Below, piece after piece: positions 3,977 to 59,420 of a stretch of DNA of 64,000 bases. The number at the start of each line of letters is the position of its first letter. Position 1 is the stretch's first letter. Under the pieces are notes generated by a model. That model was not told the DNA's origin and ran no database searches. It saw only the letters and a list, made by a program, of their open reading frames with translations. Source of the DNA: Eledone cirrhosa (lineage: Eukaryota); the NCBI GenBank assembly GCA_964016885.1, contig OZ024742.1, positions 141,918,001 to 141,982,000 of the forward strand. Reading direction: 5' to 3'. The position numbers and the translations under genes were made by a program.

Positions 3977-4058
<82 letters not shown>

Positions 4059-4062
<4 letters not shown>

Positions 4063-4221
4063 GAAAGAAATGTGGTAAGGAACCAGGTGGACCATAACGC
4101 ACCAAAGTACTCAATACTTAGGGTAGTAGAGTGGGTAATAGGAACGAGTAGGACCCCGACGGCTGAGCTCAAGCCGTTTCGAAACGGCGCTTGAGCTCAG
4201 CCGTCGGGGTCCTACTCGTTC
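4059..4221. mobile_element. Fold-back element, family C: tail 4059-4141, hairpin 4142-4221
   Basis: gaacgagtaggaccccgacggctgagctcaagccgtttc|gaaacggc.. palindrome centred 4180/4181 within (TA)n; further copies at 43345, 58984, 19731, 24630 and 61614. Confidence 0.85.
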
Positions 4222-9541: not shown

Positions 9542-9549
<8 letters not shown>

Positions 9550-9865
9550 AAAAAGAGATGAAATCGAAAATGCAACTGGAGTCTTATTTTTTTTTTAAAT
9601 ATATATATTTATTTGGTTCCTTTACCGGTTTCGCAGTTCTTCTGCTTTTCAAAAGGTGAGTTGAGATGGAGAGTCTGTGGTTTTTCTCACATCTGTGAAA
9701 ATCAGAAGAACTGCGAAACCGGTAAAGGAACCAAATAAATATATATATTTTTTTTAAAAATAAGACTCCAGTTGCATTTTCGATTTCATCTCTTTTTCTT
9801 TATACTTTCACTCGTGTAGGACACCTCGGTTATTTTTCATTTTGTAAAAAAAACCTCACTTTCTA

Positions 9866-9867
<2 letters not shown>
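9542..9867. mobile_element. Fold-back element, family D: arms about 9542-9650 and 9697-9804, tail 9805-9867
   Basis: About 105 bp inverted arms between TA tracts; diverged copy at 62170-62368. Confidence 0.85.
9619..9656 (-). ncRNA. Minimal hammerhead with U3-A8 core variant
   Basis: Minus strand reads cctt TTGAAAA gcag-aagaa-ctgc GAAA ccgg TA aagg. Confidence 0.65.
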
Positions 9868-9964
<97 letters not shown>

Positions 9965-12991: not shown

Positions 12992-13355
12992 CTATTTGTG
13001 GACTTAAAACAACAGAGTAATGAACACCCAGAGAAGGAAAGAAGTGGACAGTGTTGCCTCTCTGTCGATTTGTTCCGTTCCCATGAGAACATTACTTGAT
13101 TTTCTCAACTTTGATAGTGGACAACTATTATATATATATATATATATATATATGTCCCAAGGCTCGGATACCATCAACACTATAAACACAGAGCTGGCAT
13201 ATCTAAGAACTGACTAACTGCCTGATGATGTCATAGCCATTCAATGGTTATCATCGAAATATATATAGCTGTAAATAAAGGATTATGAGTTCATGCAATT
13301 GACCTATGTTTCGTCACTATATATATATATATATATAGTTACACCTCTATTCTTT

Positions 13356-13410
<55 letters not shown>

Positions 13411-13447
13411 AATACAAATATTAATAAAATAGATGTTCTTTTGATCA

Positions 13448-13510
13448 ATTACATTTTATTATACATATTTCGGATGTACAACTGTACGTCCTCATCAGAC
13501 AAAATATAAT
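13448..13510 (-). ncRNA. Minimal type I hammerhead ribozyme
   Basis: attatattttgt CTGATGA ggacgtac-agtt-gtacatcc GAAA t-atgt-a TA / ataaaatgtaat; all three stems form. Confidence 0.9.
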
Positions 13511-14880
13511 GATACATGACATACCCTGAGATGTTAAATGGTTAAGATTTAATCAAGGTAGTGATTAACCCAAGAAAAATTTAACATTTATACCCTAATA
13601 ATGAGAAAATGCGAAAACGTAATAAATTCAACAGAGAAAGTGCGAGTAAGAAAAACGTTGCTTAATGTAACAGTTATATAGATATTAAGATGTATGATAC
13701 TATAATTTTTTAATAAAGGGGGGTAATAAGCTGAAGGAGATTTATTTTTGCCGAAAGTTAAACGGTTAATTTTGAAAATATTTAATTTATGGTATTATAG
13801 GGTGAAGGTTCGAGATTTTGATTTATTTGTTTTTAATTCCTGGTTATTTATATATTAGTTTTATAAATTCTATAAGTGTGTTAACATTTCAAAGCGTCTG
13901 AATTTCATGTGGGTAACATTTATAGGAATTAGTTGGCCAACAGGAGTGAAAGTTTATACTGTTGATTATTTTCCTAAATGTAAACTTTAACGGAGATACT
14001 GAGCGTATTAGGTATGTAAAGCTTGTGAATTACTTATTGTTAGAAATATTTAAATAACGATTATGTATATATATATATATTAATGAGCCAGTATATTTTA
14101 GGTAGATGATAACAAAATAATAGATTGATGCATGTTAAGGTTAAATATACACCTATATATAAGAGGGTGTAAATGCATTAATTATTCTTAGTTCAGAGTA
14201 AACGAAATCAAGAAATTTAGAAGTTAACTAAAGATTTAGAAGTTAACTAAAAATTATATACAGTAATATATAGGGAGGTATATATAGATATATATTAGGT
14301 ATTAATGGTATAGTATACTTTAGGTAGATGATATCGGTTACAATTTTATATAATAAAGTTCTACGTGTTACAGTTATATACATATATGTATATAAGAGAA
14401 AGAATAATAAATGCATGGATAATTCAGATTTCAAGATAATGTCTATAATAATTTATAGTTTGGGTATTTGCTCTATATTTGAATCATGGATATATAAATG
14501 CAGTAGGTATATTTAAAAAAAAAAAAATATAGAAAATATAATTACATACATATTATGATATATTATAAATAGGAGATCAAAAACCGCGTTAAAAAATTCA
14601 CAGTTATAAATAAGATCCGTAAAAATATATGGGTTGGATATTAAACTAAAATTTAAAACTTAGAACGGAAGATAGATAGAGAGATAAAGAAATAAAGAAA
14701 AATAATGGTATTGATCAAAGTTAGTAAAATAATGTTATGTGTGTAAATGTTCAGCATGTTATTGAACAAGTGTCTTTCATTTGAACGTTATTTATTCTAT
14801 AGATAGTTATAAGATAATGCAATATTAAAAGCCATTAATGTTTTTTCCCTGTTCATTATATATGTTTGACAACCAAGTTT

Positions 14881-15444
14881 TTAATGGTTTAATGCTAGAC
14901 TCTCTTTTTTTCTCGTTTTGTGGGAAGCTAAGAATGTGGATGTCGTTTTATGGAGGCAACTAGAGAATAATTCACTTTTTTTGTTATTTAGGGTCTCATA
15001 GTTATTAATAATCAACAGGGTCTCCATTGTACAGAGCGCGCAGTTATTTGATATACTAGAGTTGCGGTAAATTCCACAGTTACGAAGTTTTGTCCAAAGA
15101 ATGGAGTATTTTAAATTTTTCTCTTTTAATGACCATATGAGCTGCTGTGATAAAGACGTGGATGATTTCCTCTTAGAGTTCGAGAATGAGCATTTATGGT
15201 TCGCAAATCGGGCTTTGAATATGGAAGAAGTTGATCCTATGTAGTTGTATATGTTGTGATCAGTTTTTACGGTGCATTTATAAACCAAATTACTATCTAG
15301 ACAATTATTTTGCAAAGGGCAATCAGTTTTATTTCTACAATTACATTTTGGTTTAGTATCATTTATGTTAACTCTATTATTAAGATCAATATGTTGGTTT
15401 TGTTTTAGGATTTTATTGTTTAATTTGGCAATGTTTTGGGCCAT
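14881..15444 (-). CDS. PLE GIY-YIG endonuclease domain (truncated ORF)
   Basis: CNCRNKTDCPLQNNC..NLVY..YIGST..FKARFANH..CALC; homologous to 53206-53856. Confidence 0.9.
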   Translation of the reverse strand: MAQNIAKLNNKILKQNQHIDLNNRVNINDTKPKCNCRNKTDCPLQNNCLDSNLVYKCTVKTDHNIYNYIGSTSSIFKARFANHKCSFSNSKRKSSTSLSQQLIWSLKEKNLKYSILWTKLRNCGIYRNSSISNNCALCTMETLLIINNYETLNNKKSELFSSCLHKTTSTFLASHKTRKKESLALNH

Positions 15445-15603
15445 GTTACTGGTTGTAGAATAGGAGAATTTAAAAGAACATCTATTTTATTAATATTTGC
15501 TTTTTAATATTAATAACTCTGGAAAATTATTACTCGTAGAGTGCTTCCAATCTACTGTAAAACTCATTCTTTGACATACTCATTGAATCTTGTTTAACTA
15601 TTT

Positions 15604-15667
<64 letters not shown>

Positions 15668-17029: not shown

Positions 17030-17094
17030 CCTGTGTAAACCTGTGTAAACCTGTGCCTACCTAAATGGATAGACAGGTGAAAATATATATATAT

Positions 17095-17230
17095 ACGATA
17101 TAGTAAATATTTATAACTTAAATATACTCCAAATATTTATATCGTAAATATACTCCAAATACTTGTTGAGTGCTTTTATATCAGTTATAAATATTTACTC
17201 GTTGTTAACCCAACAATTTAAATAAAACTT

Positions 17231-17233
<3 letters not shown>
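17095..17233 (+). mobile_element. Family A tail-only insertion
   Basis: Reverse complement of the tails at 2300-2390 and 49169-49260, with small internal rearrangements; TA flanks. Confidence 0.8.
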
Positions 17234-17264
<31 letters not shown>

Positions 17265-19730: not shown

Positions 19731-19734
<4 letters not shown>

Positions 19735-19890
19735 AGATTCAGGACCCCGACGGCTGACCTCCGGCCATTTCGAAAGGTAGATCTGAACGGAATCCGAACT
19801 GTATCTTTTCATATTACCCACTCTACTACTCCCACGTATCGAGTACACTGGTGGGTTATGGTCCACCTGTTATTTTACCACACCCTTTCT
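19731..19890. mobile_element. Diverged family C fold-back copy
   Basis: aggaccccgacggctga... followed by tail tattacccactctactac..gagtacac..ttatggtccacctg. Confidence 0.7.
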
Positions 19891-21591
19891 GATATATATA
19901 TTTATATATATATATATGTGTGTGTGTGTGTTTTGTGTGTGTGTGTTTTGTGTGTGCGTGTATGTGTGTTGTCTCATTTATGAACGCAGCATGCCCAGAT
20001 GGTTAGGAAGTTCCCTGTGTAATCATAAGAACCCTTTTAGCATGTTATAGAAACAGGTATATCTAGATGAAACATGGAGGAATAATAACATTATTAAGCC
20101 TTCTGAAACTCGGACGCTGATTCAGCTTGGGAATTAAATTAAGGGGATACGTGTCTTCAGAATACTCTGTTGTATTGTATGTATGGTCCCGTAACTCCTA
20201 ATAGAGTCGTAGGGGTGCCGTATTGACATACGGCGTTTCTTCGGCATTTTAAGCCTGGCGGAGCCTGTCCCTCTCCAGGCCTGAGTACAGCAGATTTCTT
20301 CCAGAGAAAGATAGAAAGTGAGAGGGGGGAAATGAGAAAGAGGTATAGAGGAAGGATCGACATCAGTACTAGACTGCTATCTTTTTTCATTGACCTTGAA
20401 AGGAAGACCGCGGCGGTATCTGGACTCCGAGAGCAGAGAGCCGGAATGAGTACCATAAAGCATTCTATCCGACGTTCTAACGACTCTGCCAATTCGTCGC
20501 CTAGAATACTTTGTTACATAACGTGAATAGATGAGTCGGATATTCAGGTGATCTAACAACTGAATGCTCTTCATTAAAAACAACGGAAGTTTCAACGCGT
20601 GTGTGTTTGGAGTGTACTCGATTAAAGAATATTTTTTAATATTTTACCCATGAACATTGTATTAATTCAATGTCTCTTATTCTTGGAAGATTGGATAAGA
20701 TTCCTCTCACTTGCCTCTCTCCATTTTACGTTATTATTTTTTTATGTTATTTTAAAATGGTGTCATAATAAAGCCGAGTATCTGAGATCTGGTCTCAGGA
20801 AAGGAGCTGATAATTGATTTTAGTGAAACAATTGTACTTTAATGAGTGACGTAATAAATATTTCTATACGGCAAACTCTTTATAATTACGATATATATAT
20901 GCATGTATGTATGCATGTATGTATGTATGTATGTATGTATGTATGTATGTATGAGCGCGTATGGATCTGTACGTGGGCACACGCAAGTCTGTATCTGTGA
21001 GTGTGTGTCTATTGGCGTGCATGCATATATATACATGTGCATGTGTGATTACGTTAACGCATAATTTAGTTGAATTTATTGAGTTTAATTTCGTCATGTC
21101 AGTGACAATGTGATTCATGTGGGCGCAATAATTAAACTACAACGTACATTATGTAACTGATAAATTGAATTAACTTCCATATATTACTAGATGTTCTATC
21201 TTTTGTTTTAGCTTAATTTTAATATATTTGAGAAATTATTCACTCGGAAAATGCAAATAAAATTGAAATTACATACATGCATACATACATACATACATAC
21301 ATACATACATACAAACAAACATGGTGGCTGCCAACTCGTTTTCGAGTACGGCCACTACCTTATATCCATATAGGAGAACCCCCTACCGATGCGCTGAACG
21401 ATACCATCAGAGTTGCAGGTGTTATATCAGAGTTTTCCTTCTCCTAGAATTCTGCCTTGACAAAGGCTAAGGGGTCATCTCTCCCGGTGATTTTGGATGG
21501 CCATCGACTCTTAAGAGCTCCTTTGCCCTTTGACAGGTTTTGTTTTTAGTCCTGCAGGATGTCCAAAGTCACCCTCCTCACCAAGAAACCT

Positions 21592-23299: not shown

Positions 23300-23305
<6 letters not shown>

Positions 23306-23565
23306 ATACTTGGGGAGGGTCATATTTGTGTAATATTGCCAGAATTAATAACAGAACACACTCCCTGTTTGGTTGGGTTTCGCTTCTCGCTGTCTTTTAT
23401 ATATATATATCACATAAGAAACAGAGAATCAGTGGCTATATTGTTATTGTATGCATTTTTTAACTACAAATTATCTTTTCTAGGGTTTGTATTAACCGTT
23501 ATATAACGGTTAATACAAACCCTAGAAAAGATAATTTGTAGATAAAAAATGCATAAGATAATATA
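23300..23565. mobile_element. PLE terminus (family G) followed by a ~120 bp palindrome centred 23502/23503
   Basis: ttgttatacttggggagggtcatatttg.. is shared with 42592 and 59966; palindrome ..tagggtttgtattaaccgttat|ataacggttaatacaaacccta.. Confidence 0.8.
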
Positions 23566-24749: not shown

Positions 24750-25185
24750 TAGTAATAATAATAAATTTGAAGACTAAAATCAAAAGAGGGCTCGATAAGG
24801 ATAAATATATATCAAATATATAAGAACCGTAGAGCAAATATTTATTAAAATAACAGATTAAAGTTTAAGCAAAGAATCGCTGCTTTCACCCTTAACGGGA
24901 TCTTCTGAAACTTAAGCAGCGATTCTTTGCTTAAACTTTAATCTGTTATTTTAATAAATATTTGCTCTACGGTTCTTATATATTTGATATATATTTATCC
25001 TTATCGAGGCCTCTTTGGATTTTAGTCTTCAAATTTATTATTATTACTATATATATATATATATACATATATATTAAAATATATATATATATTTATTTAA
25101 ATATATATATATTTGATATATATTTATCCTTATCGAGCCCTCTTTGGACTTTAGTCTTCACATTTATTATTATTACTATATATAT
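24750..25185. mobile_element. Fold-back element with arms about 24750-24885 and 24914-25050, plus a duplicated terminus at 25105-25185
   Basis: About 135 bp inverted arms; a single-arm copy lies at 12111-12187. Confidence 0.85.
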
Positions 25186-25194
25186 ATATAGTAA

Positions 25195-26765
25195 TAATCC
25201 ACAGTTCAAAATAAAGTCAGTAAAAATTTACAGGTTAGATATCAAAGCTATACTTAAAACAGAGATAGAAAAACAGATAGAAAAATAAAAGTCTGGATAT
25301 TATTAACTTTGATCCAGACATTTATTTTCTATCTCTGTTTTTCTATCTCTGTTTTAAGTATAGCTTTGATATCTAACCTGTAAATTTTTACTGGCTTTAT
25401 TTTGAACTGTCGATCATTCATGCGTTTACATTTTTATATATCTATGTATTTTATAGTTATGCATGTATGAATCTATTACCTAAGATTATAACCGTTATCC
25501 TTTACTAAATGTATACCGTCTCATTAATACTTAATATATCTCTCTATATGTAGTTGGTGCAAATATGTTTATATTATATAATAACATAGTCATAAATATA
25601 GTTCGGTAGACCTCTGTATATAGTTTTGTGCAAATACGTTTATAATATACAATAACACAATATTAAGTTTAGTTCGGTATAACTCTATGTATAGTTTGTC
25701 CAAATATATATATATTTATATTGTATATTGACATAATCATAATTAGAGTTCGGTTCTTCCCTAGAATGCTGAATTAATGTAATGATCTAATATTTAATAT
25801 ATGAATAGATAATAAAAATAATAATTTATAGTTCCCTTATTAAGATCAATGCACACATATATATATATATATATATTTACAGCTGAAAACTCTGGTTTAA
25901 TTGTTATACTTTAGACACTATAACTATTTAACAATAAATTCCTTGATAATTATAACTGTAAATACTTCATAAACTATACATATGGATATTGTTGATAATA
26001 TTACAAGTAATATCTTTAAAGATTACCTTTGCGTGAATATTGAACAGTATATATTTTTCTTTCGTGGGCCTAGTAAATCCTTTAAATTCGATTTCATAAA
26101 ACTTTGAATTTTAGAAATTTAACACATTTATAAATTTATAAAATTTATAACACAAATAACCCCCAACTTTTAAAACCTATAATTTTGCTTCGTTACCATA
26201 AAATAACATAAATTAAATATTTTGAAACCTCACCGCCAAGGCTATATATGTTTATATGTGTCTGAAGAATATTTGTGCATAAATTACTCCCCTTTATCCC
26301 TCTCTCTTTAATTATATATCAGCTGTATTCTCAAACTAAAAACTAATATAACTCCAGATATGTATAGTCTTCCTCTATTGTCCTACAGTAGTATTTCAAA
26401 CATTAATAACCCTATAACTGTTACATTAAAGCAATCTTTTTCTTACTCACACCCTCTCTATTGATTCTATTACGTTTTCCCATGTTCTCATTTGTACGGT
26501 ATAAATCTTGAGTTTTCTCCCAAGTTAATCACTACCTTGATTAAATCTTAACCATTTAACATGTCAGGGTATGTCATGTATCATTTTATTTTATCTGATG
26601 AGGACGTACTATTGAACTTGATTCAAGTACCTAAGACATATGTATAATAACATTTAATTGATCACAAGAACATCTATTTTATTAATATTTGAATTTAATA
26701 TTAATAACTCTGGAAAATATCTCTCTGTTGAGTGCTTTCAATCTATTGTAAAACTCATTCTAAAA
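25195..26765 (+). mobile_element. Family B PLE 3' UTR copy with a 5' hairpin (25201-25410), decayed hammerhead and tail
   Basis: 26450-26760 is homologous to the reverse complement of 13403-13640 and to 15472-15570; CTGATGA at 26595 with GAAA mutated. Confidence 0.8.
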
Positions 26766-26783
26766 TAGATATATATATATATA

Positions 26784-27090: not shown

Positions 27091-27414
27091 ACAGAAAAAG
27101 GGTGGGGTGTTTTAGAGAGAAAAAGAAGATAGATAGACACTCTGATGAACGATATCAAAATTGTTGCGTCGAATAATATATACAATGAGTTATTTCGACC
27201 CGTAAAATATATATCCATTTGCACTAGACAAAATAATTGGACTGATATAATCAACTAAAATATATCTAGGTGTAGTTCCAGCTTGGCTGCAGTGGAATAA
27301 CTGAAGCCAAATAACTCATTGTATATATTATTCGACGCAACAATTTTGATATCGTTCATCAGAATGTCTATCTATTTTCTTTTTCTCTCTAAAACCCCCC
27401 ACCCCCTCTCTCTC

Positions 27415-33699: not shown

Positions 33700-34826
33700 G
33701 ATATAAATAAATGGAAACTATATTTATAAAACCATATTTATTCTGTTAATTATGTTTCAAGGGTACCAAAACTTTGATACGCGCTCATCAGATAAAATAC
33801 AAAATTTGTTTTATAAATATTGACATATCCAGGAAGGAGATCTTAACGGTTCAAGTTTTTCCTGGATAGTAAAAAGAAAAAGGGGAATGAGAGGAAAAAA
33901 TCAAATATTTCAACTTATTAAGACGAATATGCAAATGAGGTTGAGGTATAGGGCTGAAAAAAATGTTATTTTTAGACGCAGGTAGATTTAAATAATTATT
34001 AGGATATATAATGTATGTGTAGGAAGAAGAAAGAGAAAGAAAGAAAAGCTTGTATTTACGTGAATTTAAAAAGATTGAAATGTTAAGAATTAACAGTTTG
34101 TAGGAATGGTGGAATATGATTCCAGAATTTAAAAAAAATATATAGTTAAATTATGAGTTATAATATTATATATATAATCAATTAGATTATATGAAGAATT
34201 ATGGTTGTAAGTACATTTTATCTTATTATATTGCAACAGGTTGTAAGTATATAAATATCTATATACGTGTACAAGTGTATAAGTATAAGTATTATTGGTG
34301 ATTTTATAGATATAAAACACACGTATTAATTGTTTACGTTTCTAATATGAGTTACGAAGGATGTTGATTTTACATTTTACATATATATTTAAGAAAAAAA
34401 CGTAGTTCAAATTGTAAGAGAAGAACAATTTGTAGATTCAAATATTTTCATCCAACATTGAAAATATTTTCAGAACATTATTAATTTTTTTGAGGTCGGT
34501 GGATTGGCAGTATCGGTAGAGAGTCGGACACCATGCTTTGAAGCATAGAGTTACGTTCCTTTATGATCTGAGTTCAAATCCCGCCGAGGTTAACTTTGCC
34601 TTTCATCCTTACGGGGTCGATAAAATAAAGTACCAGTAATGTACTAGGTAATTGCTGGCCTTGTGCCTAATATAGAAACAATTATTAATTTAGCGAAATT
34701 ATATAATTTATCATACAAGTTATTATGTCTATGTTTGCTCAATTGTAACAGAACAGATAACTCCAATATTATTTATTAACCATTAAATTTGATGAATAAT
34801 TTGATGAATATTTAAATAAGAAATAC
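33697..34826 (-). mobile_element. Family A PLE 3' UTR fragment with hammerhead, interrupted by a SINE
   Basis: Starts at the family A short end (aaatggaaactatatttataaaaccatattta); minus strand has CTGATGA..GAAA at about 33735-33805; right boundary uncertain. Confidence 0.65.
34497..34684 (+). mobile_element. Full-length tRNA-derived SINE (reference copy; about 18 copies in the window)
   Basis: tggcagtatcgg A-box, gagttcaaatccc B-box, central ctttcatccttacggggtcgataaaat..agtacc domain resembling the MetaSINE-type core from memory. Confidence 0.9.
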
Positions 34827-34844
34827 ATATACATATATATTGAG

Positions 34845-37101
34845 AATTTCCCTCCCCCCCGGCCCACACCCTCTCCTCTTCACCCTAGATATCAAGTCCC
34901 TCTATACTGTCATCCCCCACGCCGACGGCCTACGTGCCCTCCGGCACTACCCCGACCTTCGCCCCTCCCCCATCTTCTCCACCCGCACCAACTTCGCCTC
35001 GCTAAGCTGGTCCTCACCCTCAACTGCTTCTCCTTCTCGGGTGAGTTTTACCAACAGGTCACGGGGGTAGCCATGGACACAAGAATGGGCCCAAACTATG
35101 CCAACCTTTTCGTTGGCCATGTTGAGGCCCAAATCTTTGCCCAGTACACCGGCCCCACGCCCGAACTGTACGGTCGTTACATCGATACCTGCATCGGAGC
35201 GACGACCCTCACACGAGAACAGCTCGACTCCTTTCTCTCCTTCTGCTCCTTCCATGGTCCCAACAGCCACTCTCTCTCTGTCCGGCACGCCTTCCGCTGC
35301 ACCTCCTCCAACCTAGTCTATGGACTTCGCTGCACGGAGTGAGGCGCAACTACGTCGGACAGACTGGACGTCGCCCGGCGGACCGTTTCACGGAACACCT
35401 CCGGGATATTCGTCTTGGTGGGATTCCCCGATCGCCCGCCACTTTTGCTCCCCTGGACATTCCGCCCACCACCTCACAATGCCATGGAACACCCGCCACC
35501 CGCCTTACGGTCGAACAACGCACCATCTTCACCCTCCAGACCCACACACTCCCCGGCCCAAACTCCCCACTCCTATTCCTTTAGCCTTCGACCAAACAAA
35601 TTCCCCACTAACACACTCGTCCTTTTCACCGCCCTACTCCCTTGGCCCATCCCACAACTAACAATACTAACGCCCCACTCCCGGCCCTTCCCCAACTAAC
35701 TATACTAACATCCCCACCCCTCCCCCTAACACGCACACACCCACCTGAACATATATACACGCACTCACACACCCTACTACCACCACTAACTCTCACCCAC
35801 ACATCCACTCTGACCACCCCACAACTAACATCACTAACCTCCCCCCGACCCCACTCACACAAACACACACCATCACACACACATAAACCCGCACCTATGT
35901 ACACCACCCACTCCACTCACCCAACCACCACTAACCCCCACTATACACCCGCTTTCAACCCTTTCCCTGCCACCAGTATATGACACACACACTCATCCAA
36001 ACACGCACACACACACCAGTACACTACACTACCTCTTCCGTCCCCAACACCTCTTCTCTCCCTCTAACTCTCCCCGCTCCAACTACACGCCTTCACACAC
36101 ACACATCCCACTAACACCTTTACTAATATACATCCCCCCCACATCACCACCTTCCTCCTCCACCCTTCACACCTACCCATCCTCTCCCCTGTCCACCGCA
36201 CCACCGCACACACAGATACACACACTGACCGTTTCTCCACCTGTCATCCTCTACTGCTATCTCTTCACCCTTCCTTGACCCTCTGACCACTTCCTGTTGC
36301 GCGCGCACCCCACTTCCCTCCACTTCCGACCACCACCAACATTGGATTCTACACCACCGGTCATCGTTCCAGCCATCCACTCCATAACATGAAACATTTC
36401 CAGCATTTCATCGCAGGAATTCACCTTAGGAACTTATCCACGAACATTCACTCACATTTTTTTTCGCACCACGCCACCTACATCCACACCACGTATAAAC
36501 ACAAACACACACGTGCGTACCCCCACATATACACACTCAGCCTCCGGAACCCAAACGCCCTGACCCCTCTCCTTCCACACGCACGCAGACACCGACTTAC
36601 ACCCCACCTCACGCACACACCTTTTCCTGAACATGGAACCTCGTTCTTCCCCCAACTCTCACGTTCACATACACACGCACACACACACGTACACCTACAC
36701 ACATACACAAACACCACCTTCAGCCTTCCCCGTTTCGACCCCCCTCCCCCCCCCCCCCCCCCCCCCCCACCTCCCTCTCCCAACTCCACCCGCCACCACC
36801 CTTACACGCCTCACACCCTTCCACCACTTGGTCATTTTATTGTTTATGTTTTATGTTTATTTTTATGTTTATTTTAATTTTTATTTTTATTTGTTCTCCT
36901 TCCCCCTTTTTTCTAAATGTCTTTCCACTCCTCCTCTACACACCCTCGGAACTCTCCTCCTACCCAATTTTCTCCTGAAGAAGGGCTTATGCCCGAAACG
37001 CGCCCCCCCCCCCCCCCCTCCCCCACTCTCAAGAGCGTGAACCTAATAAACCTATATTTGTCTGCCTCTCTGTTTTCGTTCATTCCCGTCCAATTTTTCA
37101 C

Positions 37102-46597: not shown

Positions 46598-46881
46598 AAC
46601 AAGCAAATTATAAACATGTAAGTATGTTTTTTGAAACGGTGGGCGAGTTTGTAATTAGAAATTAGAAATTATAAGCTTTCACCGTATTTTAGACTAAAGA
46701 AATTTCTAGCCTGATAGTGGGGTTTATAACCCTCGGAGAAATGGAAAAAGATGAGTGTTGACGTACATGTACGTCAACACTCATCTTTTTCCATTTCTCC
46801 GAGGGTTATAAACCCCACTATCAGGCTAGAAATTTCTTTAGTCTAAAATACGGTGAAAGCTTATAATTTCTAATTTCTAAT
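46597..46881. mobile_element. Family E fold-back: perfect 228 bp palindrome 46654-46881, tail 46597-46653
   Basis: Loopless centre gttgacgtaca|tgtacgtcaac at 46767/46768; TA flanks. Confidence 0.92.
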
Positions 46882-47502: not shown

Positions 47503-47876
47503 AATAAAAGTATGTCTTCCTACATGTAAATAATACACATAGAAATACAAGTATAGCCCGACCGTATGCAATTGTAGTTCAATGGTAAGTTAATAAATTA
47601 ACAAGCCAGAACATAAAATCAAGGGAAAGCAAATAAAGAAAATATTTTAAAATAAATTTCAAAAAATTCACTGTACTTACTATATGTGTCTTTACCGCGG
47701 AATCTTATATTCTCCGAGAGAGAAAAGCTTTCTGACGAGGATCTCTTTCTCAATGGAAATCCGCTTGGATTAGATAATTGATTTGGGATCTGAAACCGCG
47801 GTAAATGCACATATAGTAAGTACAGTGAATGTTTTGAAATTTATTTTTAAATGTTTTCTTTATTTGCTTTCCCTTG

Positions 47877-47883
<7 letters not shown>
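47503..47883. mobile_element. Fold-back element with arms about 47613-47700 and 47796-47883, left extension 47503-47612
   Basis: About 88 bp inverted arms; hammerhead spans the spacer and right arm. Confidence 0.85.
47726..47808 (+). ncRNA. Minimal type I hammerhead with a long stem II
   Basis: gcttt CTGACGA ggatctc...gggatct GAAA c-cgcg-g TA / aatgc. Confidence 0.75.
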
Positions 47884-47974: not shown

Positions 47975-49127
47975 ACTAAACTATCAATTTAATAATTCCA
48001 TTCAATAAAACCACCATAAGCATCAATAACTACCTCTACGCGGGCTGGAAATCGTTTACAAGATCGGATTAAGTGGTCCTTGTTCATATCGGACATGACT
48101 CGAACTATGGCAGCTTTCAAAGGATCTCTGGTGCTATGGGGGTGTTCCTTGACATTTTTCTCAACGATGCTCCATACATAGTAGTCCAGTGGATTTAAAT
48201 CTGGACAATTAGGGCTGCCAAATATTGGGGTGATGTGATCATGCAACTTGTCGGCCATCCATTCTTGTGTCATTTGAGCCTTGTGTGATGCTGCAGAATC
48301 TTGTTTAAAGACATAAGGCCTTCTATTGCATACACTGTTGATCCAAGGCTTAACAACTTTATCCAGAACCTCAATATATGCAGTAGCATTCATCCTAAGG
48401 CCTTGTGGAAAAAAGTGAGGAAGCATCACATGTTTTTCATTGCTAACAACACCCAAAACCATGACACTTGCAGGACATTTTGTGTGCATTACACTTGGAA
48501 CCTCAGGAGGGTCTGCACATAGCCATCTGTCATTTCTTCTGTTAGATTTCTGGTCCTGGTCAATGTTTTTCTCATCTGAGTAAAACCAAATCACACCATC
48601 TTCTGATGGATTTTTAAGTTTGTTCAAAGGTCTTTTGAATCTGATTAAACGGTTTTCTTTTGTTTTTTCTGACATGAATCGACCTCTCCTCATCACGTAA
48701 GATTTGTATCTGATGTCTTCATGCACAACATTTCCGAATGTTTTTTCTGACACATCAACATATTTTGCAATTGACCTCATTGATTTTCCTGGATTGTCGT
48801 CAATGTTTTGCTTAACTTCCTGAATAAATTCAGGTGCCCTGGTAGAATCAGAGTGTTTGGAATGTTTTTTTACGTTTTGATACAGGTAATACGCTTCCAT
48901 CTTCCTTCTCTAACTCACACCGAATCTAGTAGACAAAAGATCTTGCAACTTTCACAACGAGAAATGTCAAAATCACCATGCTTAGCTTTCAAAGCCACAA
49001 TCACAGCATGCCTTATCATTTCATTAGTAAGCATAGTTATTTTTATTGTTATTTTCTGAAATAGAAGTTCAATAAAAATTAGTCAAATAAAATAATGATT
49101 AAAACTGCTTGTGACCTCCGCACCCTA
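47975..49127 (-). mobile_element. Tc1/mariner (maT, DD37D) transposon; one end visible
   Basis: Transposase ORF; right end ..gtgacctccgcaccc|ta; no matching left TIR seen. Confidence 0.85.
47989..48900 (-). CDS. DD37D transposase, N-terminus probably frameshifted
   Basis: WFYSDEK, FKQDSAASH, SPNCPDLNPLDY; 37 residues counted between the second and third catalytic D. Confidence 0.9.
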   Translation of the reverse strand: MEAYYLYQNVKKHSKHSDSTRAPEFIQEVKQNIDDNPGKSMRSIAKYVDVSEKTFGNVVHEDIRYKSYVMRRGRFMSEKTKENRLIRFKRPLNKLKNPSEDGVIWFYSDEKNIDQDQKSNRRNDRWLCADPPEVPSVMHTKCPASVMVLGVVSNEKHVMLPHFFPQGLRMNATAYIEVLDKVVKPWINSVCNRRPYVFKQDSAASHKAQMTQEWMADKLHDHITPIFGSPNCPDLNPLDYYVWSIVEKNVKEHPHSTRDPLKAAIVRVMSDMNKDHLIRSCKRFPARVEVVIDAYGGFIEWNY

Positions 49128-49293
49128 TATATATATACCGTTCGCACCCTATTTATATATATATATATGCAAAAGTTTTATTTTAAATTGTTGGGATACA
49201 ACGAGTAAATATTTTATAACTGATATAAAAGCACTCAACTGGTTTTGGAGTATTTTACGATATTAAACAAATGGAAACTACATTTATAAAACC

Positions 49294-49370
49294 ATATTTA
49301 TTTCATTATATATATTTCAGGGATATCATATTAAAAATATGGTATGCCCTCTTCAGACAAAATACAATAT
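49294..49370 (-). ncRNA. Minimal hammerhead, left arm
   Basis: Mirror of 55183-55259. Confidence 0.8.
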
Positions 49371-50696
49371 ATAGACAGTTTTATAAATAACTTTGACATA
49401 CCTTAGAATTTACAACTTCCATTTAAAAAGTTGTTACGGTAATGAAAATGTTAAGGACGGTTAGAAAGAAAGACGGAGAAAAAAGGAAAAAAGAAAAAAG
49501 AAAAAGAAGGAGAAAAGAAAAAGAAAGAGCGGAAGGTGAAGAAGATGAAGAAATGTATGTAAAGAGAAAACCACCAAATGAGAGATCTATGAGGGAAGGG
49601 GGTACTGTAATTATTCATTTATTTATTTATTTATTTAGTGTTAAGGATACGGGGAGAAATAAAAACAAAAATAAATAAGGAGAGGTAGATCGAGTAATAT
49701 CTATTATACGAGGTGGGAGAGATAGGGGAGGGGTGATATACAGGAGATAGAGTTAAAACAGCCGATATAAGAGTAGAGGGAGGAGGAGAGGAGATATACT
49801 TAGAAACAAAAATGATAGTTTTAAAATATTATGTTTCATCAGTCTATCAATTCCTATGAATTATAATGTAAACATCAATATTCATGAATGAGACACATAT
49901 CAATAATGTGTGAAAAAATAATGACTATATGTTTAGTTTAAAAATTCATAGGTTTATAATCAAAATCTGAGATAAAACCTCAAAAAATACTGGAATACAT
50001 AAGTATATATATGTATTTTCATGAAAAAAGAGAAAAGAGAAAGAAAAAGAGAAGGTTATCTCAAATTGACATTATAGACACATGTGAGTTTACATGATCA
50101 GCTCTGTAAATTTTTATTTCACATGGAAATCTTCATTGCGTCAAAAAGATTTTACCATACACATAAGTGTACATACATATATATATACATAAAATATACA
50201 TTATTAATAATAATAATATTCTTGCCCCTTCTTACATGATTATCGTACAAGCATAGAATAGAACAGATATCAATATATTAAAATATTAAAAACGCCGAGA
50301 ATATTTTCCTCCCCAGAATATCTAGGGCCGTAATAAAAACACAGTGTGCCCAGCATATCAATCAATCCCTCCAATTTATTTGACAATACTGCCAAGTTTA
50401 TTAGAAGCAATCAGAGTCAAAAGCAAACAAAACCAAAATTATTCACCAAACTTATTTAGCAGAAATCATTCAAAAAAAACTTTAGGATACTCGGTTGTTC
50501 TACAGATGCTCTTATATTTATTATAGAAGTTTATCTAGCTTAAAAATTTTATTCAATAGATTTGGATCATCACCATTTTAAGGTAGTTTAATTACATTAT
50601 TAATTATATATTCATGAAGAAGGTTTAAAGAATTGAAGGAATCGAAAGATTTATCGCCAAGTTTTCTAAAATAATTAAAAGTCTTAAGTAAATATA

Positions 50697-51347
50697 CTAC
50701 ATTTTAAACTTATATTTATATCTATGTCTGCAGCAACTGAATAAATTGGTCCGTAAATTAAGGGAATTTTTAGATTTTAGTATAAAGAATATCTCCTCCG
50801 CGCAGAGGTCACATGTCTCAGAGGAGGAGTTAAAAGGAATCCCTCTTGAGACTATATTCCAAACCGTCGAATATCCAACGTTATCATGTTTAAGTTGCCA
50901 GAGTAAGCCTGATAGTGATGTTGAAGATTTTTTGTTTGGATCTGTGAAAGAATTCTTGTGATTATTATAGCGAAGTTTAAATTCTGTCGAGGTGGAACCA
51001 ACATAATTAAAAGAATTTAAGTCAGTTTTAACATTACAGTTGTATATTATATTTTTAACTAAGCAATTGTTATTTAACGGGCATTTAGATCTATCTCTAC
51101 AGTTACAGTTGTTTACTTGAATATTGTTTATGCTATTATCGGTATTTTGGCTAGGTTTTAGATTCCTATTATTTATTCTATTAATATTTTGTGCTAAATT
51201 TTTGGTGGACGAGTAGGTTAATTTTATAGTATGTCTATTGAAAATTGAGTGATACTTATGTGTTCTAGGGAATCGTTTGTCAAGAGCATTAAAAAATAGT
51301 TTAGCGATGTGGGTTTTAATGTTTAGTGAGAAAGGGGGGCAAACCAA
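50697..51347 (-). CDS. PLE linker plus GIY-YIG endonuclease, left arm
   Basis: CNCRDRSKCPLNNNC..NIIY..YVGST..FKLRYNNH..CDLCAEE. Confidence 0.92.
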   Translation of the reverse strand: MVCPPFSLNIKTHIAKLFFNALDKRFPRTHKYHSIFNRHTIKLTYSSTKNLAQNINRINNRNLKPSQNTDNSINNIQVNNCNCRDRSKCPLNNNCLVKNIIYNCNVKTDLNSFNYVGSTSTEFKLRYNNHKNSFTDPNKKSSTSLSGLLWQLKHDNVGYSTVWNIVSRGIPFNSSSETCDLCAEEIFFILKSKNSLNLRTNLFSCCRHRYKYKFKM

Positions 51348-52274
51348 ATTATGTTTCTAGTTCTATTTCTTTTCTGGTTTTTGGAATTATTGTAATTCTT
51401 TCTATTATAGTTGTTAAAGTTGTTACCGTAATTAAAATTGTTGTTATTTTGGTTAGTTTGTCTATTATTATTATCGATGTACATAATTTTATCACTATAT
51501 CCTGCTCTAGCTAACGCTTCATTGTAATAGTGGGCTTTTTGGTCGAAAATATTTTTATTAGATGAGATTCTAGAGATACGTTTTTGAACAGAGTTCACTA
51601 TAGTATTTTTAACAGATCTGGGGTGGTTGGAGTTAAAGTTGACATAATTCAAGTTTTCATTTAACTTGTGAAATGGATAGTGAAGACATGTGTTGAGATT
51701 TAATGTTACATCTAGGAAATTGACTATTCTATGGTTATTCTCAATTTCTATTTTTAGATTAAGGTAATTAAAAAATTGTATAATTTGTTTTCTTTTTCTA
51801 TTTAGTTCAGAGTTATTATTTTCAATAAGTAAAAGCATGTCATCTCGATATAATCCTCCGGTAGCACCGGGTATTTTCCTATGCAGCGAATTAATTATAA
51901 ATAGGCCCACAAGGTCTGTTACCTGAGCTGAGTCAGATGATCCCATAGTAATGTCAAAATTGCTATCCCTATCTGCCCTAGTCCATAGTTGGTTATTAAA
52001 TTCTATCAATGTTTTTCTTGCCGATAGTATAATGTGCATTTCATTGCTAGTTAGGTCTGTATGTTTGAATGCATAATTTAGTGCCTTATTTAGTAGGTTA
52101 GGGGTAATAGATGAATAGTAGTTAGAAATATCTAGTTGAATAAATTTATTATTATTGTTATATTTAATTTCTTTAAACCACTCAATAACCTCTCCAGTTC
52201 CCTTCCACAAGCTTAAGTTAGGTGAACAATTCAAGTTCTTAATTTGCTGTATAACCCTGTCTAGAATGTTTTTG
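51323..52274 (-). CDS. PLE reverse transcriptase, 5'-truncated, left arm
   Basis: FIQLDISNYYSSI, FDITMGSSDSAQVTDLVG, GLYRDD, VNFLDVTL, SNHP. Confidence 0.92.
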
Positions 52275-53230
52275 TTAGCAAAAACATTCTAGACAGGGTG
52301 ATACAGCAAATTAAGAACTTGAATTGTTCACCTAACTTAAGCTTGTGGAAGGGAACTGGAGAGGTTATTGAGTGGTTTAAAGAAATTAAATATAACAATA
52401 ATAATAAATTTATTCAACTAGATATTTCTAACTACTATTCATCTATTACCCCTAACCTACTAAATAAGGCACTAAATTATGCATTCAAACATACAGACCT
52501 AACTAGCAATGAAATGCACATTATACTATCGGCAAGAAAAACATTGATAGAATTTAATAACCAACTATGGACTAGGGCAGATAGGGATAGCAATTTTGAC
52601 ATTACTATGGGATCATCTGACTCAGCTCAGGTAACAGACCTTGTGGGCCTATTTATAATTAATTCGCTGCATAGGAAAATACCCGGTGCTACCGGAGGAT
52701 TATATCGAGATGACATGCTTTTACTTATTGAAAATAATAACTCTGAACTAAATAGAAAAAGAAAACAAATTATACAATTTTTTAATTACCTTAATCTAAA
52801 AATAGAAATTGAGAATAACCATAGAATAGTCAATTTCCTAGATGTAACATTAAATCTCAACACATGTCTTCACTATCCATTTCACAAGTTAAATGAAAAC
52901 TTGAATTATGTCAACTTTAACTCCAACCACCCCAGATCTGTTAAAAATACTATAGTGAACTCTGTTCAAAAACGTATCTCTAGAATCTCATCTAATAAAA
53001 ATATTTTCGACCAAAAAGCCCACTATTACAATGAAGCGTTAGCTAGAGCAGGATATAGTGATAAAATTATGTACATCGATAATAATAATAGACAAACTAA
53101 CCAAAATAACAACAATTTTAATTACGGTAACAACTTTAACAACTATAATAGAAAGAATTACAATAATTCCAAAAACCAGAAAAGAAATAGAACTAGAAAC
53201 ATAATTTGGTTTGCCCCCCTTTCTCACTAA
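52274..53230 (+). CDS. PLE reverse transcriptase, 5'-truncated, right arm (motifs resemble Nematis-type PLEs; clade uncertain)
   Basis: Same motifs as the left arm; frame is open from the palindrome centre (VSKNILDRVIQQIK). Confidence 0.92.
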   Translation, partial: VSKNILDRVIQQIKNLNCSPNLSLWKGTGEVIEWFKEIKYNNNNKFIQLDISNYYSSITPNLLNKALNYAFKHTDLTSNEMHIILSARKTLIEFNNQLWTRADRDSNFDITMGSSDSAQVTDLVGLFIINSLHRKIPGATGGLYRDDMLLLIENNNSELNRKRKQIIQFFNYLNLKIEIENNHRIVNFLDVTLNLNTCLHYPFHKLNENLNYVNFNSNHPRSVKNTIVNSVQKRISRISSNKNIFDQKAHYYNEALARAGYSDKIMYIDNNNRQTNQNNNNFNYGNNFNNYNRKNYNNSKNQKRNRTRNIIWFAPLSH

Positions 53231-53856
53231 ACATTAAAACCCACATCGCTAAACTATTTTTTAATGCTCTTGACAAACGATTCCCTAGAACACATAAGTA
53301 TCACTCAATTTTCAATAGACATACTATAAAATTAACCTACTCGTCCACCAAAAATTTAGCACAAAATATTAATAGAATAAATAATAGGAATCTAAAACCT
53401 AGCCAAAATACCGATAATAGCATAAACAATATTCACGTAAACAACTGTAACTGTAGAGATAGATCTAAATGCCCGTTAAATAACAATTGCTTAGTTAAAA
53501 ATATAATATACAACTGTAATGTTAAAACTGACTTAAATTCTTTTAATTATGTTGGTTCCACCTCGACAGAATTTAAACTTCGCTATAATAATCACAAGAA
53601 TTCTTTCACAGATCCAAACAAAAAATCTTCAACATCACTATCAGGCTTACTCTGGCAACTTAAACATGATAACGTTGGATATTCGACGGTTTGGAATATA
53701 GTCTCAAGAGGGATTCCTTTTAACTCCTCCTCTGAGACATGTGACCTCTGCGCGGAGGAGATATTCTTTATACTAAAATCTAAAAATTCCCTTAATTTAC
53801 GGACCAATTTATTCAGTTGCTGCAGACATAGATATAAATATAAGTTTAAAATGTAG
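53206..53856 (+). CDS. PLE linker plus GIY-YIG endonuclease, right arm
   Basis: Continues the RT frame after a 1 nt deletion in a C6 run (IIWFAP/PFSLN). Confidence 0.92.
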   Translation: MVCPPFSLNIKTHIAKLFFNALDKRFPRTHKYHSIFNRHTIKLTYSSTKNLAQNINRINNRNLKPSQNTDNSINNIHVNNCNCRDRSKCPLNNNCLVKNIIYNCNVKTDLNSFNYVGSTSTEFKLRYNNHKNSFTDPNKKSSTSLSGLLWQLKHDNVGYSTVWNIVSRGIPFNSSSETCDLCAEEIFFILKSKNSLNLRTNLFSCCRHRYKYKFKM

Positions 53857-55182
53857 TATATTTACTTAAGACTTTTAATTATTTTAGAAAACTTGGCGAT
53901 AAATCTTTCGATTCCTTCAATTCTTTAAACCTTCTTCATGAATATATAATTAATAATGTAATTAAACTACCTTAAAATGGTGATGATCCAAATCTATTGA
54001 ATAAAATTTTTAAGCTAGATAAACTTCTATAATAAATATAAGAGCATCTGTAGAACAACCGAGTATCCTAAAGTTTTTTTTGAATGATTTCTGCTAAATA
54101 AGTTTGGTGAATAATTTTGGTTTTGTTTGCTTTTGACTCTGATTGCTTCTAATAAACTTGGCAGTATTGTCAAATAAATTGGAGGGATTGATTGATATGC
54201 TGGGCACACTGTGTTTTTATTACGGCCCTAGATATTCTGGGGAGGAAAATATTCTCGGCGTTTTTAATATTTTAATATATTGATATCTGTTCTATTCTAT
54301 GCTTGTACGATAATCATGTAAGAAGGGGCAAGAATATTATTATTATTAATAATGTATATTTTATGTATATATATATGTATGTACACTTATGTGTATGGTA
54401 AAATCTTTTTGACGCAATGAAGATTTCCATGTGAAATAAAAATTTACAGAGCTGATCATGTAAACTCACATGTGTCTATAATGTCAATTTGAGATAACCT
54501 TCTCTTTTTCTTTCTCTTTTCTCTTTTTTCATGAAAATACATATATATACTTATGTATTCCAGTATTTTTTGAGGTTTTATCTCAGATTTTGATTATAAA
54601 CCTATGAATTTTTAAACTAAACATATAGTCATTATTTTTTCACACATTATTGATATGTGTCTCATTCATGAATATTGATGTTTACATTATAATTCATAGG
54701 AATTGATAGACTGATGAAACATAATATTTTAAAACTATCATTTTTGTTTCTAAGTATATCTCCTCTCCTCCTCCCTCTACTCTTATATCGGCTGTTTTAA
54801 CTCTATCTCCTGTATATCACCCCTCCCCTATCTCTCCCACCTCGTATAATAGATATTACTCGATCTACCTCTCCTTATTTATTTTTGTTTTTATTTCTCC
54901 CCGTATCCTTAACACTAAATAAATAAATAAATAAATGAATAATTACAGTACCCCCTTCCCTCATAGATCTCTCATTTGGTGGTTTTCTCTTTACATACAT
55001 TTCTTCATCTTCTTCACCTTCCGCTCTTTCTTTTTCTTTTCTCCTTCTTTTTCTTTTTTCTTTTTTCCTTTTTTCTCCGTCTTTCTTTCTAACCGTCCTT
55101 AACATTTTCATTACCGTAACAACTTTTTAAATGGAAGTTGTAAATTCTAAGGTATGTCAAAGTTATTTATAAAACTGTCTAT

Positions 55183-55259
55183 ATATTGTATTTTGTCTGA
55201 AGAGGGCATACCATATTTTTAATATGATATCCCTGAAATATATATAATGAAATAAATAT
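55183..55259 (+). ncRNA. Minimal type I hammerhead, right arm
   Basis: atattgtattttgt CTGAAGA gggcataccatatt-ttt-aatatgatatccct GAAA t-atat-a TA / atgaaataaatat. Confidence 0.8.
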
Positions 55260-55655
55260 GGTTTTATAAATGTAGTTTCCATTTGTTTAATATCGTATAT
55301 ATATATATATATATATATTTATAAATAACATTATTATTTCTGCACCATTTCTTTAACATGTGCAACACCACCATTCTACACCAATACATATCACTATCAT
55401 TTGATAATGCATACAAATGGTGAAACCGGTAATAGACAATTATTAAATATATAAATAGATAAATAAATGCCATTGTTAATTAATAAATAAATCAACTAAT
55501 ACCTTAACACTTCACACATAGTAAAATATTTCGTTTTAATCATTTTCTAACCCAGAAAAAAGAGAGAAATAAATAAAAAGGGAAAAAAAAATTTTTTCTT
55601 CCTAATAATCGTCTCTTTCTCCCTGTTTTCATATATATATATATATATAAATATA

Positions 55656-57268
55656 TCCCCCACTAACACCACTAACACACCCCTCCTTTTCACCGCCCAC
55701 CCCACACTAACAATACTAACACCTCCACTCCACCCCTCATCTGACCACACTTCCCCAACTAACATACTAACATCCCTTCCCTCCCCTCTTCTCCTCCTCC
55801 CCCTCCTTATCACACGCACACACCCACCGGCACATATATACACGCGCTCACACTAAACACACACCCTACTACCACCACTAACCCTCACCCCCACACCTCT
55901 CACCCCCACACCTCCATCCCACCACCCCGCAACTAACCTCACTAACACCCCCTAACCCCAAGCACACGAACACACGCACCCACTTACACCACCCACCCCA
56001 CACGCAACTAACATCACTAACACCCCCAACCCCACGCACACGTACCCACACACCCTCGTACACCACCAACTCTACACACCCTACCACCACTAACCCCCAC
56101 TCACACCTGCATTCAACCACTCCCCACCTCCCGTATACTAACACCCACTAACACCTCTTCATCAAACTACACACACACCAGTACACCACACTGCCTCCAT
56201 AGAACCACACACACCCTTCTTTCTCCCCGCTCCACCCACACCCTCGCTCCACACTCACTCATCCCACTAACACCCCTACTAATACACACACACACACACA
56301 CACCCTCCTCACTCCAACTTTCACACCTACCCATCCTCGCCCCCTTACCATTCCACCGACTGCTGCTATGCCATCTGACCACCTCCCAGCACTAACAGAC
56401 CACAGCACTCCCACTGCTGACCACTTCCTGTTGCGCGCGCACCCCACATCTCTCCTCTTCCGACCACCGCTTCATGGATTACCCACACGCAGAATTTGAC
56501 TTACAACCAATCCACTATACATCCTTGGAACTTACCAACTTTTCAACCATCCTCTTACGTAATTACCTATATAACTCACCCACACACACACCCAAAAAAA
56601 AATTTTTTCTCCACACGCCACCCACACCACAACACGCTTAAACCCCACATACACGTGCTTCCCACCACATATTTACACCCTCAGCCTCCTGATTCCTCTC
56701 CCCCCAGCCCCCTATCCACACACGCACAGACACTCCGACCCACAAAAACACCCCCCACACACACCTCTTCCTGAACATGCAACCCCGTTCTTCCCCCAAC
56801 TCTTACTTTCACATACACACATACACACACACACACACGCACACCTACACACACACACCACCTTCAGCCCTCCCCGCTCGGACACCCCGTCTCCCTCTCC
56901 CCACTCCACCCGCCACCACCCTACTCACCCCACACCCTTCCACCACCTGTTTACCCCCCTTTTAATTTCAGTTTATTTTGATCATGCCTTTATTTTTAAA
57001 TTTTCTCATTCCCTGTATTTTGATCATGCTTTATTTTTATTTTTTATCTTTATTTGTTTTTTTTCATTCGCACCGTTTCCTTTCGCTATATGTCTCTCCA
57101 CCACTCCCCTACACACCTTTTGAACTCTGTTCCCACACACTTCTCACCTGAGGAAGGGCTTATGCCCGAAACGTCGTCCCCCACCTACCCCCCACTCTCC
57201 TGAGCGTGAAATTAATAAACATTTATTGTACTGCCTCTCTGTTTTGTCCCTGTTCAAATTTTTCCATT
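55656..57268 (+). mobile_element. Second Neptune-like PLE copy, 3' UTR only
   Basis: Colinear with 35600-37102 (gaccacttcctgttgcgcgcgcacccc, cgttcttcccccaactct, gagcgtgaa..taataaac..ctgcctctctgtttt). Confidence 0.88.
57148..57178 (+). ncRNA. Hammerhead core with GTC triplet
   Basis: CTGAGGA agggc-ttat-gccc GAAA c-gtc-g TC; stem I not evident. Confidence 0.6.
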
Positions 57269-59202: not shown

Positions 59203-59250
<48 letters not shown>

Positions 59251-59253
<3 letters not shown>

Positions 59254-59418
59254 GAAGTTCTATTTAAATTGTTGGGATACAACAAGCAAATATTTTTATA
59301 ACTGATATAAAGCACTCAACAAATTATTGGAGTAAAACAGCGCACCATAATTTAACTTGGTGTCCTTGAAATATGTATAATGAAATAAATATGGTTTTAT
59401 AAATATAGTTTCCATATC

Positions 59419-59420
<2 letters not shown>
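59251..59420. mobile_element. Family A insertion: minus-strand tail joined to a plus-strand short end
   Basis: 59251-59335 matches the 49169-49252 tail; 59366-59420 matches the 55233-55296 terminus. Confidence 0.8.

Follow-up and report, generated by a model that had tools for sequence, protein, structure and literature searches.

The stretch of DNA analysed here (the window; 64,000 nt of contig OZ024742.1 from Eledone cirrhosa) is AT-rich animal DNA packed with (TA)n arrays, and its masked self-comparison reveals many short palindromes as well as one of 6 kb. At positions 13403-15606, a Hydra-type Penelope-like retroelement (PLE), termed A1, is inserted in (TA)n with its arms head to head. 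The left flank of the target repeat (13360-13403) is followed by a long, tail-less arm on the minus strand (13404-15471), a 5'-truncated PLE of family A that is 2.07 kb in length and reaches the short end of the element (S), which abuts the (TA)n. The truncation point adjoins an inverted, plus-strand copy of the final 39 nt before S (15472-15510), and this copy runs on into a 96-nt plus-strand tail (15511-15606), whose end (T) meets the right flank of the target repeat (15607-15665). Directly to the left of A1, the same TA array carries the end of another hammerhead-bearing element (13150-13318).

The original prediction described a coding arm of 2 kb. The arm does extend over that length and ends at S, but only ~590 nt of it encode endonuclease (EN), the remainder being a 3' UTR of about 1.45-1.48 kb. 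The coding portion (14884-15471, minus strand) is the C-terminal remnant of a GIY-YIG endonuclease that retains a CxCx5C linker, a CxxC and a CxH; it shares 46% identity with the endonuclease of family B (53197-53853) and matches an alignment of 36 homologous proteins at 99.9% in hhalign. A pattern scan places a putative hammerhead-ribozyme core (CTGATGA..CGAAA; 13469-13498, minus strand) ~95 nt before S. By analogy to full-length relatives, the tail probably represents the beginning of the element's 5' UTR, and it bears the stem motif ACTC-N19-GAGT(GCT) 5 nt past S.

The predicted asymmetry, in which the short inverted arm bears the tail and the long arm lacks it, is borne out by direct comparison of the arms. 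The inverted copy is identical to the S end of the long arm at 37 of 39 positions (overlap 39-40 nt); the best match elsewhere in the arm reaches 24/39, and the best of 200 shuffles 27/39. That the tail follows S in linear order in family A is given by the second copy, A2, at 26666-26766. An assembly fold-back artefact was considered and ruled out, as the arms differ and the flanks are not mirrored. The two mismatches in the overlap, together with many private changes relative to sequencing reads, mark A1 as an old copy. A1 is a real and recurrent variant of a known insertion layout.

Both functional domains expected of such an element can be traced in the window, as an EN remnant in A1 and as reverse transcriptase (RT) plus GIY-YIG EN in family B. 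At least 451 homologs of 563 aa or more are retrieved at E≤0.001, the nearest named proteins being those of the octopod Argonauta hians. The CxCx5C linker before the C-terminal GIY-YIG domain reads CNCRNKTDC in A1 and CNCRDRSKC in family B and is present in 100 of 120 homologs; translations further show CALC and CLH in A1, CDLC and CRH in B, and no CCHH. The N-terminal region, which carries RWK/RWR in 86 and DKT in 98 of the same 120 homologs, is truncated in the window copies. Pfam returns no match for the window proteins, nor for four homologs save one weak DUF. The putative hammerhead core pattern recurs in families A, B and G. Among the 150 of 206 Rfam rows listed for the window, none is a hammerhead family, these rows being miRNA-type hairpin noise, and a search of six relatives yielded one chance match.

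These features fit a Hydra-type element. The Hydra clade, as described in the available text of PMC8557442, shares the C-terminal GIY-YIG EN, the CxCx5C linker, the absence of CCHH, the CxxC and CxH, the putative hammerhead core and the (TA)n target. Its members are typically "<3 kb", which is a tendency; the elements here are longer, with the 3' UTR of about 1.45-1.48 kb, and the truncated arm of B5 in family B alone already measures 3.0-3.1 kb. That text likewise contains no description of long tails or of motifs arranged in tandem in the 5' UTR. We therefore use the label Hydra-type, and not settled membership in the Hydra clade, because the elements exceed the typical length and the assignment rests on motifs rather than on a tree.

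Further copies in the window place A1 in a broader series. The pieces at 59251-59420, which had been pooled with A1, indeed do not overlap but belong to a different family, namely family B, that of the 6-kb palindrome at 49170-55297; the endonucleases of the two families are 46% identical. In this insert (B6), a minus-strand, tail-only piece spanning about +6 to +86 from S (59250-59336) faces a plus-strand piece (59337-59420) that holds the final ~90 nt up to S, less a small deletion close to its end; the two leave a gap of ~5 nt, and both ends lie in (TA)n, as in A1. A third clear reverse case is C2 of family C (19731-19892), in which the tail-less arm measures ~72 nt and the tail arm begins ~12 nt before S; it is about 81-83% identical to C4. 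The second family A copy, A2 (25193-26766, plus strand), consists of a 1.4-kb tail-bearing arm with a 64-nt tail and a 107-nt inverted arm that stops internally beside another element, indicating that secondary rearrangement does occur in this DNA. In family B, the palindrome B5 (49170-55297) has 3,019-nt arms with the tail at left; the arms are 99.9% alike, as expected of a very young copy, and RT and EN are separated by a frame change.

The 4-nt centre of B5 is part of the tail-less arm. The residues V-S-K are readable at the centre only in that arm, in agreement with the homologs (V/I in 112 and S in 114 of 120), and motif-anchored counting in homologs yields G-K/I-I/V-S-K (I/V in 81 of 95). 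These motif-anchored counts rule out the alternative that a natural 4-bp hairpin accounts for the B5 centre.

Thirteen two-armed inserts are found in the window, in families A, B, C and G, and in each of the 13 the two arms come from one family, face each other head to head and have no intervening TA. Ten are classifiable, in that both outer ends lie at S and T and the centre is decidable; outside this count stand A2, B2 and C6 (a patchwork, or an outer end that is neither S nor T), G (ambiguous owner of the loop), B3 (one arm) and families D, E, H, I and K (no demonstrated PLE link). The tail-less arm is longer in six of the ten (A1, B1, B5, B6, C2 and C3), the tail arm in three (B4, C4 and C5), and the arms are equal in one (C1). 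The excess of the tail-less arm, small differences having been scored by eye from alignments, is ~2,030 nt in A1, at least 60 nt in B6 and C2, ~20 nt in B1, ~6 nt in C3 and 4 nt in B5; the tail-less arm of E1, in family E and thus outside the ten, is 35-47 nt longer. Because a single tail-primed fold-back always puts the loop on the tail arm, and so predicts no such case, these six of ten contradict it. The exclusion of hairpin self-priming from one tail-primed cDNA, as originally put forward, consequently stands, and the non-overlapping pieces of B6 support it further.

The arms end within about 20 nt of one another in B1, B5, C1, C3, C4, C5, C6 and G. Those of B4 join at a 12-nt internal inverted repeat. 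In the young, near-symmetric B5, B1 and C3 the centre already lies on the tail-less arm, which implies that the palindromes themselves need two starts. The clear reverse cases are older copies (A1, C2), and the youngest inserts are near-symmetric, a distribution that later deletion would predict and that counts as evidence against two primings.

The window holds several other structures. A patchwork of the B2 type in family B (17084-17234) comprises a few bases of the short end, a piece of tail in inverted orientation, a duplicate of the tail's beginning and the tail itself, and its junction looks like the product of repeated template switching. The palindromes at 46598-46880 and 4058-4221 centre on natural self-complementary 4-mers (CATG and TCGA), a feature that annealing between two like cDNA ends, or the folding of a strand with a tiny loop, would be expected to produce. 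Additional palindromes with a one-sided overhang lie at 9547-9870, 24752-25176, 23301-23561, 47560-47880 and 27100-27404, in families without an ORF in the window; the stem motif is absent from E1, D4 and K, those tested among the overhang palindromes of this kind. The short end of C4, at 58985, adjoins (GA)n instead of (TA)n, and priming there may therefore not require TA complementarity. Decayed remnants at 34800-37076, 55669-57245 and 61011-61600, which resemble other PLE types, show RT- and GIY-YIG-like motifs in translation, with hammerhead cores at 36975 and 57148. An open frame of 306 aa at 47989-48909 resembles a Tc1/mariner DDE transposase.

Sequencing reads reveal further joints of this kind. 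Reads from four of nine listed runs, three from one sample (as contigs) and one RAD library, were compared with 13404-15604. Among the joints listed (15 of 75, and 12 of 131 of those containing inserted letters), six distinct same-strand joints from other genomic copies connect a short-end arm to a tail piece. The short-end arms measure 33, 65, 74, 157, 159 and 883 nt, and the tail pieces begin at +43, +57, +64, +47, about -19 and about -8 to -18; four of the joints consist of non-overlapping pieces, and the 883-nt joint is weak in that it runs into a TA run. Two opposite-strand joints are ambiguous, and the other listed joints fall mostly at internal TA or A runs. As the reference favours the lopsided class, these joints demonstrate recurrence and give no class frequency. 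None of the 24 read pieces listed, of 10,498, crosses the junction of A1 itself; one tracks the A1 body to 15473 and so supports at least 2 nt of exact overlap at the junction. In the three runs from one sample, contig depth summed at the tail end reaches about half the value at the short end, a ratio that is not a copy number.

The junction of A1 may retain a trace of how its strands were joined. The first 15 nt of the inverted copy resemble the coding strand at the junction, constituting an imperfect microhomology. With family B standing in for the missing sequence of family A, the junction 15-mer matches the coding strand in register at 10 of 15 bases, a level reached by 3 of 1,561 windows. 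The homologs read N-R/K-N-T-V/I/L-K at this site (N in 119 and R/K in 113 of 120) and A1 reads N-R-C-S-F-K, the inverted copy supplying N-R-C-S-F. The mismatched bases kept at the junction are those of the short arm. This implies either priming from the 3' end of the short strand, with the long strand as template, or polymerase slippage between the two repeats. Judged from this pattern, the long strand may have served as template for the short one; the polarity is wrong for a long strand of A1 that primes itself. Slippage deletion fits the microhomology equally well. Of the two discriminants originally proposed, arm lengths in lopsided copies distinguish fold-back from two-priming models, and microhomology at A1 accommodates priming and deletion alike.

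The position of the two ends is illuminated by full-length relatives, which were gathered by a protein-based scan of metagenome contigs (78 loci, 33 with upstream sequence). Their 3' pseudo-LTR halts at (TA)n ~65-82 nt past the hammerhead core, and the 5' pseudo-LTR copy continues into the 5' UTR. In the 5' UTRs of these 33 relatives, the motif RCTC-N8..24-GAGY is present one or more times in 28 (shuffles predict 2.4) and two or more times in 17 (0.1 predicted), with a median spacing of 65 nt; five of the 33 UTRs lack it altogether. The 3' half of the motif alone is found twice in 19/33 UTRs vs 0/130 coding windows. Six (TA)n-joined ends could be mapped onto a 5' copy, and five of them fall 7-11 nt before one of the two motif copies: L019, L039 and L044 at 7-11 nt before copy 1, and L001 and L022 at 8-10 nt before copy 2. 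The sixth, L047, has no strict motif, and two further candidates in relatives were discarded as internal TA runs. Classified purely by position, the TA-joined ends comprise seven of the short type, eight of the tail type and two that are unplaced.

In the window families, S sits 4-12 nt before the motif in A1, A2, G, C4 and C2; a single copy is visible in these families. Their motif has an A-U closing pair where the relatives have G-C, which is probably one lineage event and weak proof of pairing. The stem itself, of 4 bp, is weak at -3.7 kcal/mol and shows one compensatory pair. When folded as single sequences, the tails do no better than shuffles in four of five cases, and the short arm of A1 gives a z of -2.7. 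No ORF-like translation was found in the tails of A, C and G. The metagenome contigs are mostly collapsed, and the eight of 78 loci inspected by eye contain no classifiable lopsided pair. At L001:2931-2957 and L069:2418-2439, two Hydra-type elements lie tail to tail on either side of a single TA run, which each of them meets at the tail-type position.

A1 is probably the product of two RT starts, one at S and one at T, whose cDNAs were joined head to head in a manner resembling L1 twin priming with a fixed inner start. Two primings offer the best reading of the layout and are unproven for A1 itself. This part of the original prediction is accordingly the best fit to the data; later deletion remains a rival. 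Both primings would lie at the two sides of one break, in (TA)n flanks that hide any target-site duplication. In the proposed sequence of events, the endonuclease would cut both strands within (TA)n, and each 3' end of the cut would prime one cDNA, at S and at T, respectively. The template is probably one RNA that continues from the 3' pseudo-LTR into the following 5' UTR, such that the tail-primed enzyme would have to get past the first enzyme and its RNA:DNA hybrid. To our knowledge, PLE RTs lack RNase H. An early stall of the tail-primed enzyme would give a lopsided insert, with the 39-nt overlap of A1 or the small gap at 59251-59420, and displacement of the first cDNA up to the RNA 5' end would give a palindrome with a one-sided tail. 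Palindromes might alternatively arise by fold-back of one cDNA, followed by its annealing to the second. The 3' ends of the two cDNAs would then pair through short complementary stretches, from which second strands would be primed.

The motif could account for the fixed positions of both starts. Tentatively, and with rather less assurance than for two primings at A1, we propose a programmed form of twin priming in which two tandem 5' UTR motifs, RCTC-N8..24-GAGY(NCT), each load one RT a few bases upstream, one per side of the cut, and in which palindromic, lopsided and non-overlapping inserts are the outcomes of a race between the two enzymes on one RNA. If each motif copy positions one enzyme, tail length would equal motif spacing, and the loss of one copy or alteration of the spacer should remove or shift one start site.

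The principal competing explanation holds that A1 began as a symmetric palindrome of at least 2 kb, from which a later, microhomology-guided deletion took nearly all of the tail-bearing arm. Long palindromes are unstable, A1 is old, its junction carries the imperfect 15-nt repeat, A2 has likely undergone secondary loss, and the youngest palindromes, B5 and D4, are symmetric. A uniformly random deletion would, however, leave a tail arm as short as that of A1 only ~6% of the time, the lopsided class recurs in three families and in the read joints, and the young near-palindromes B5, B1 and C3 already require two starts; we regard this explanation as unlikely, if still worth serious consideration. 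Less probable again is single-strand self-priming, whereby the 3' end of a cDNA or antisense RNA folds back on itself and copying proceeds through S into the tail. It would suit the abundance of palindromes whose loops are tiny or whose centres are self-complementary (TCGA in C1, CATG in D4) and the B4 joint at an internal inverted repeat, and an antisense template could place the loop on the tail-less arm. A tail-primed cDNA nevertheless cannot yield the longer tail-less arms or the non-overlapping pieces of B6 and four read joints, the mismatches kept at A1 have the wrong polarity for the long strand, and the placement of each end before its own motif copy is left without an account.

Independent priming and truncation on two RNAs, carried by a dimer or by two enzymes and followed by host end-joining, shares the two-priming core of the favoured explanation and differs in template number only. 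It would cover arms of very different length, whichever of the two is longer (A1, B4), as well as the B2 patchwork junction, and a dimer is predicted for the PLE protein PAc in the available text of PMC11167929. Arm ends within ~20 nt of each other in eight inserts would be rare under independent truncation at 3 kb, making a second RNA very improbable. At the far end of the scale lie two independent insertions side by side, an alternative also raised originally. TA arrays are hot spots, and another element does end at 13150-13318, but same-family, head-to-head pairing in 13/13 cases with no intervening TA has a chance of <1e-9 for five equally common families, so that adjacent insertions are effectively refuted.

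How PLEs form inverted arms with a one-sided tail is named as an open question in the available part of PMC8557442 and partly answered in vitro in that of PMC11167929. None of the publications among the matches listed, in a search that older subscription literature lay outside, states two-sided PLE priming or a tandem motif, and the accessible portions of bioRxiv 10.64898/2026.07.22.740005, bioRxiv 10.1101/2024.12.14.628481 and PMC8969392 contain nothing relevant to PLE priming. A PLE tail of 30-40 nt is reported in the former text (PMC8557442) to occur "at either end"; the layout itself is therefore not new, being ordinary for PLEs and already in print, and what is new and open to testing is the motif that occurs twice in the 5' UTR.

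Published insertions of EN+ PLEs, as far as the available text of PMC8557442 and PMC3846280 describes them, have in common with those of the window the head-to-head arms, the one-sided tail, the putative hammerhead core in the pseudo-LTR and the microsatellite target. They differ in the tails, which measure 64-96 nt here and are assigned to the 5' UTR, and in the mechanism invoked, which is endonuclease-mediated resolution in the former paper and self-priming on an antisense template in the latter, in contrast to the two primings proposed here. A closer biochemical parallel is provided by PAc (Poseidon, from the green anole), for which the available account of in vitro work (PMC11167929) describes two RT starts, with both strands cut and extended. 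As proposed for the window families, two internal starts define the tail; the target is likewise AT-rich, and RNA 3' of the starts was needed. PAc belongs to another clade, both of its starts fall inside the ORF in a single AC-rich stem-loop, and no head-to-head joining is shown in that account.

In L1 twin priming, according to the available text of bioRxiv 10.1101/2024.08.27.596794, both nicks prime on one RNA and the cDNA ends join by microcomplementarity, with a small gap at the inversion point in 66% of cases (median 14.5 nt) and an overlap in 17% (median 22 nt). The 39-nt overlap of A1, the ~5-nt gap of B6 and the ~12-nt overlap of C2 resemble this arrangement of head-to-head cDNAs. The same gap-or-overlap geometry is not seen in the long palindromes here, in which overlaps reach 3 kb. 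L1, moreover, starts at poly(A) and, through chance pairing, at an internal site that varies; the elements studied here lack poly(A), and both their ends are fixed within each family, which makes the insertions twin-priming-like and not products of the L1 process.
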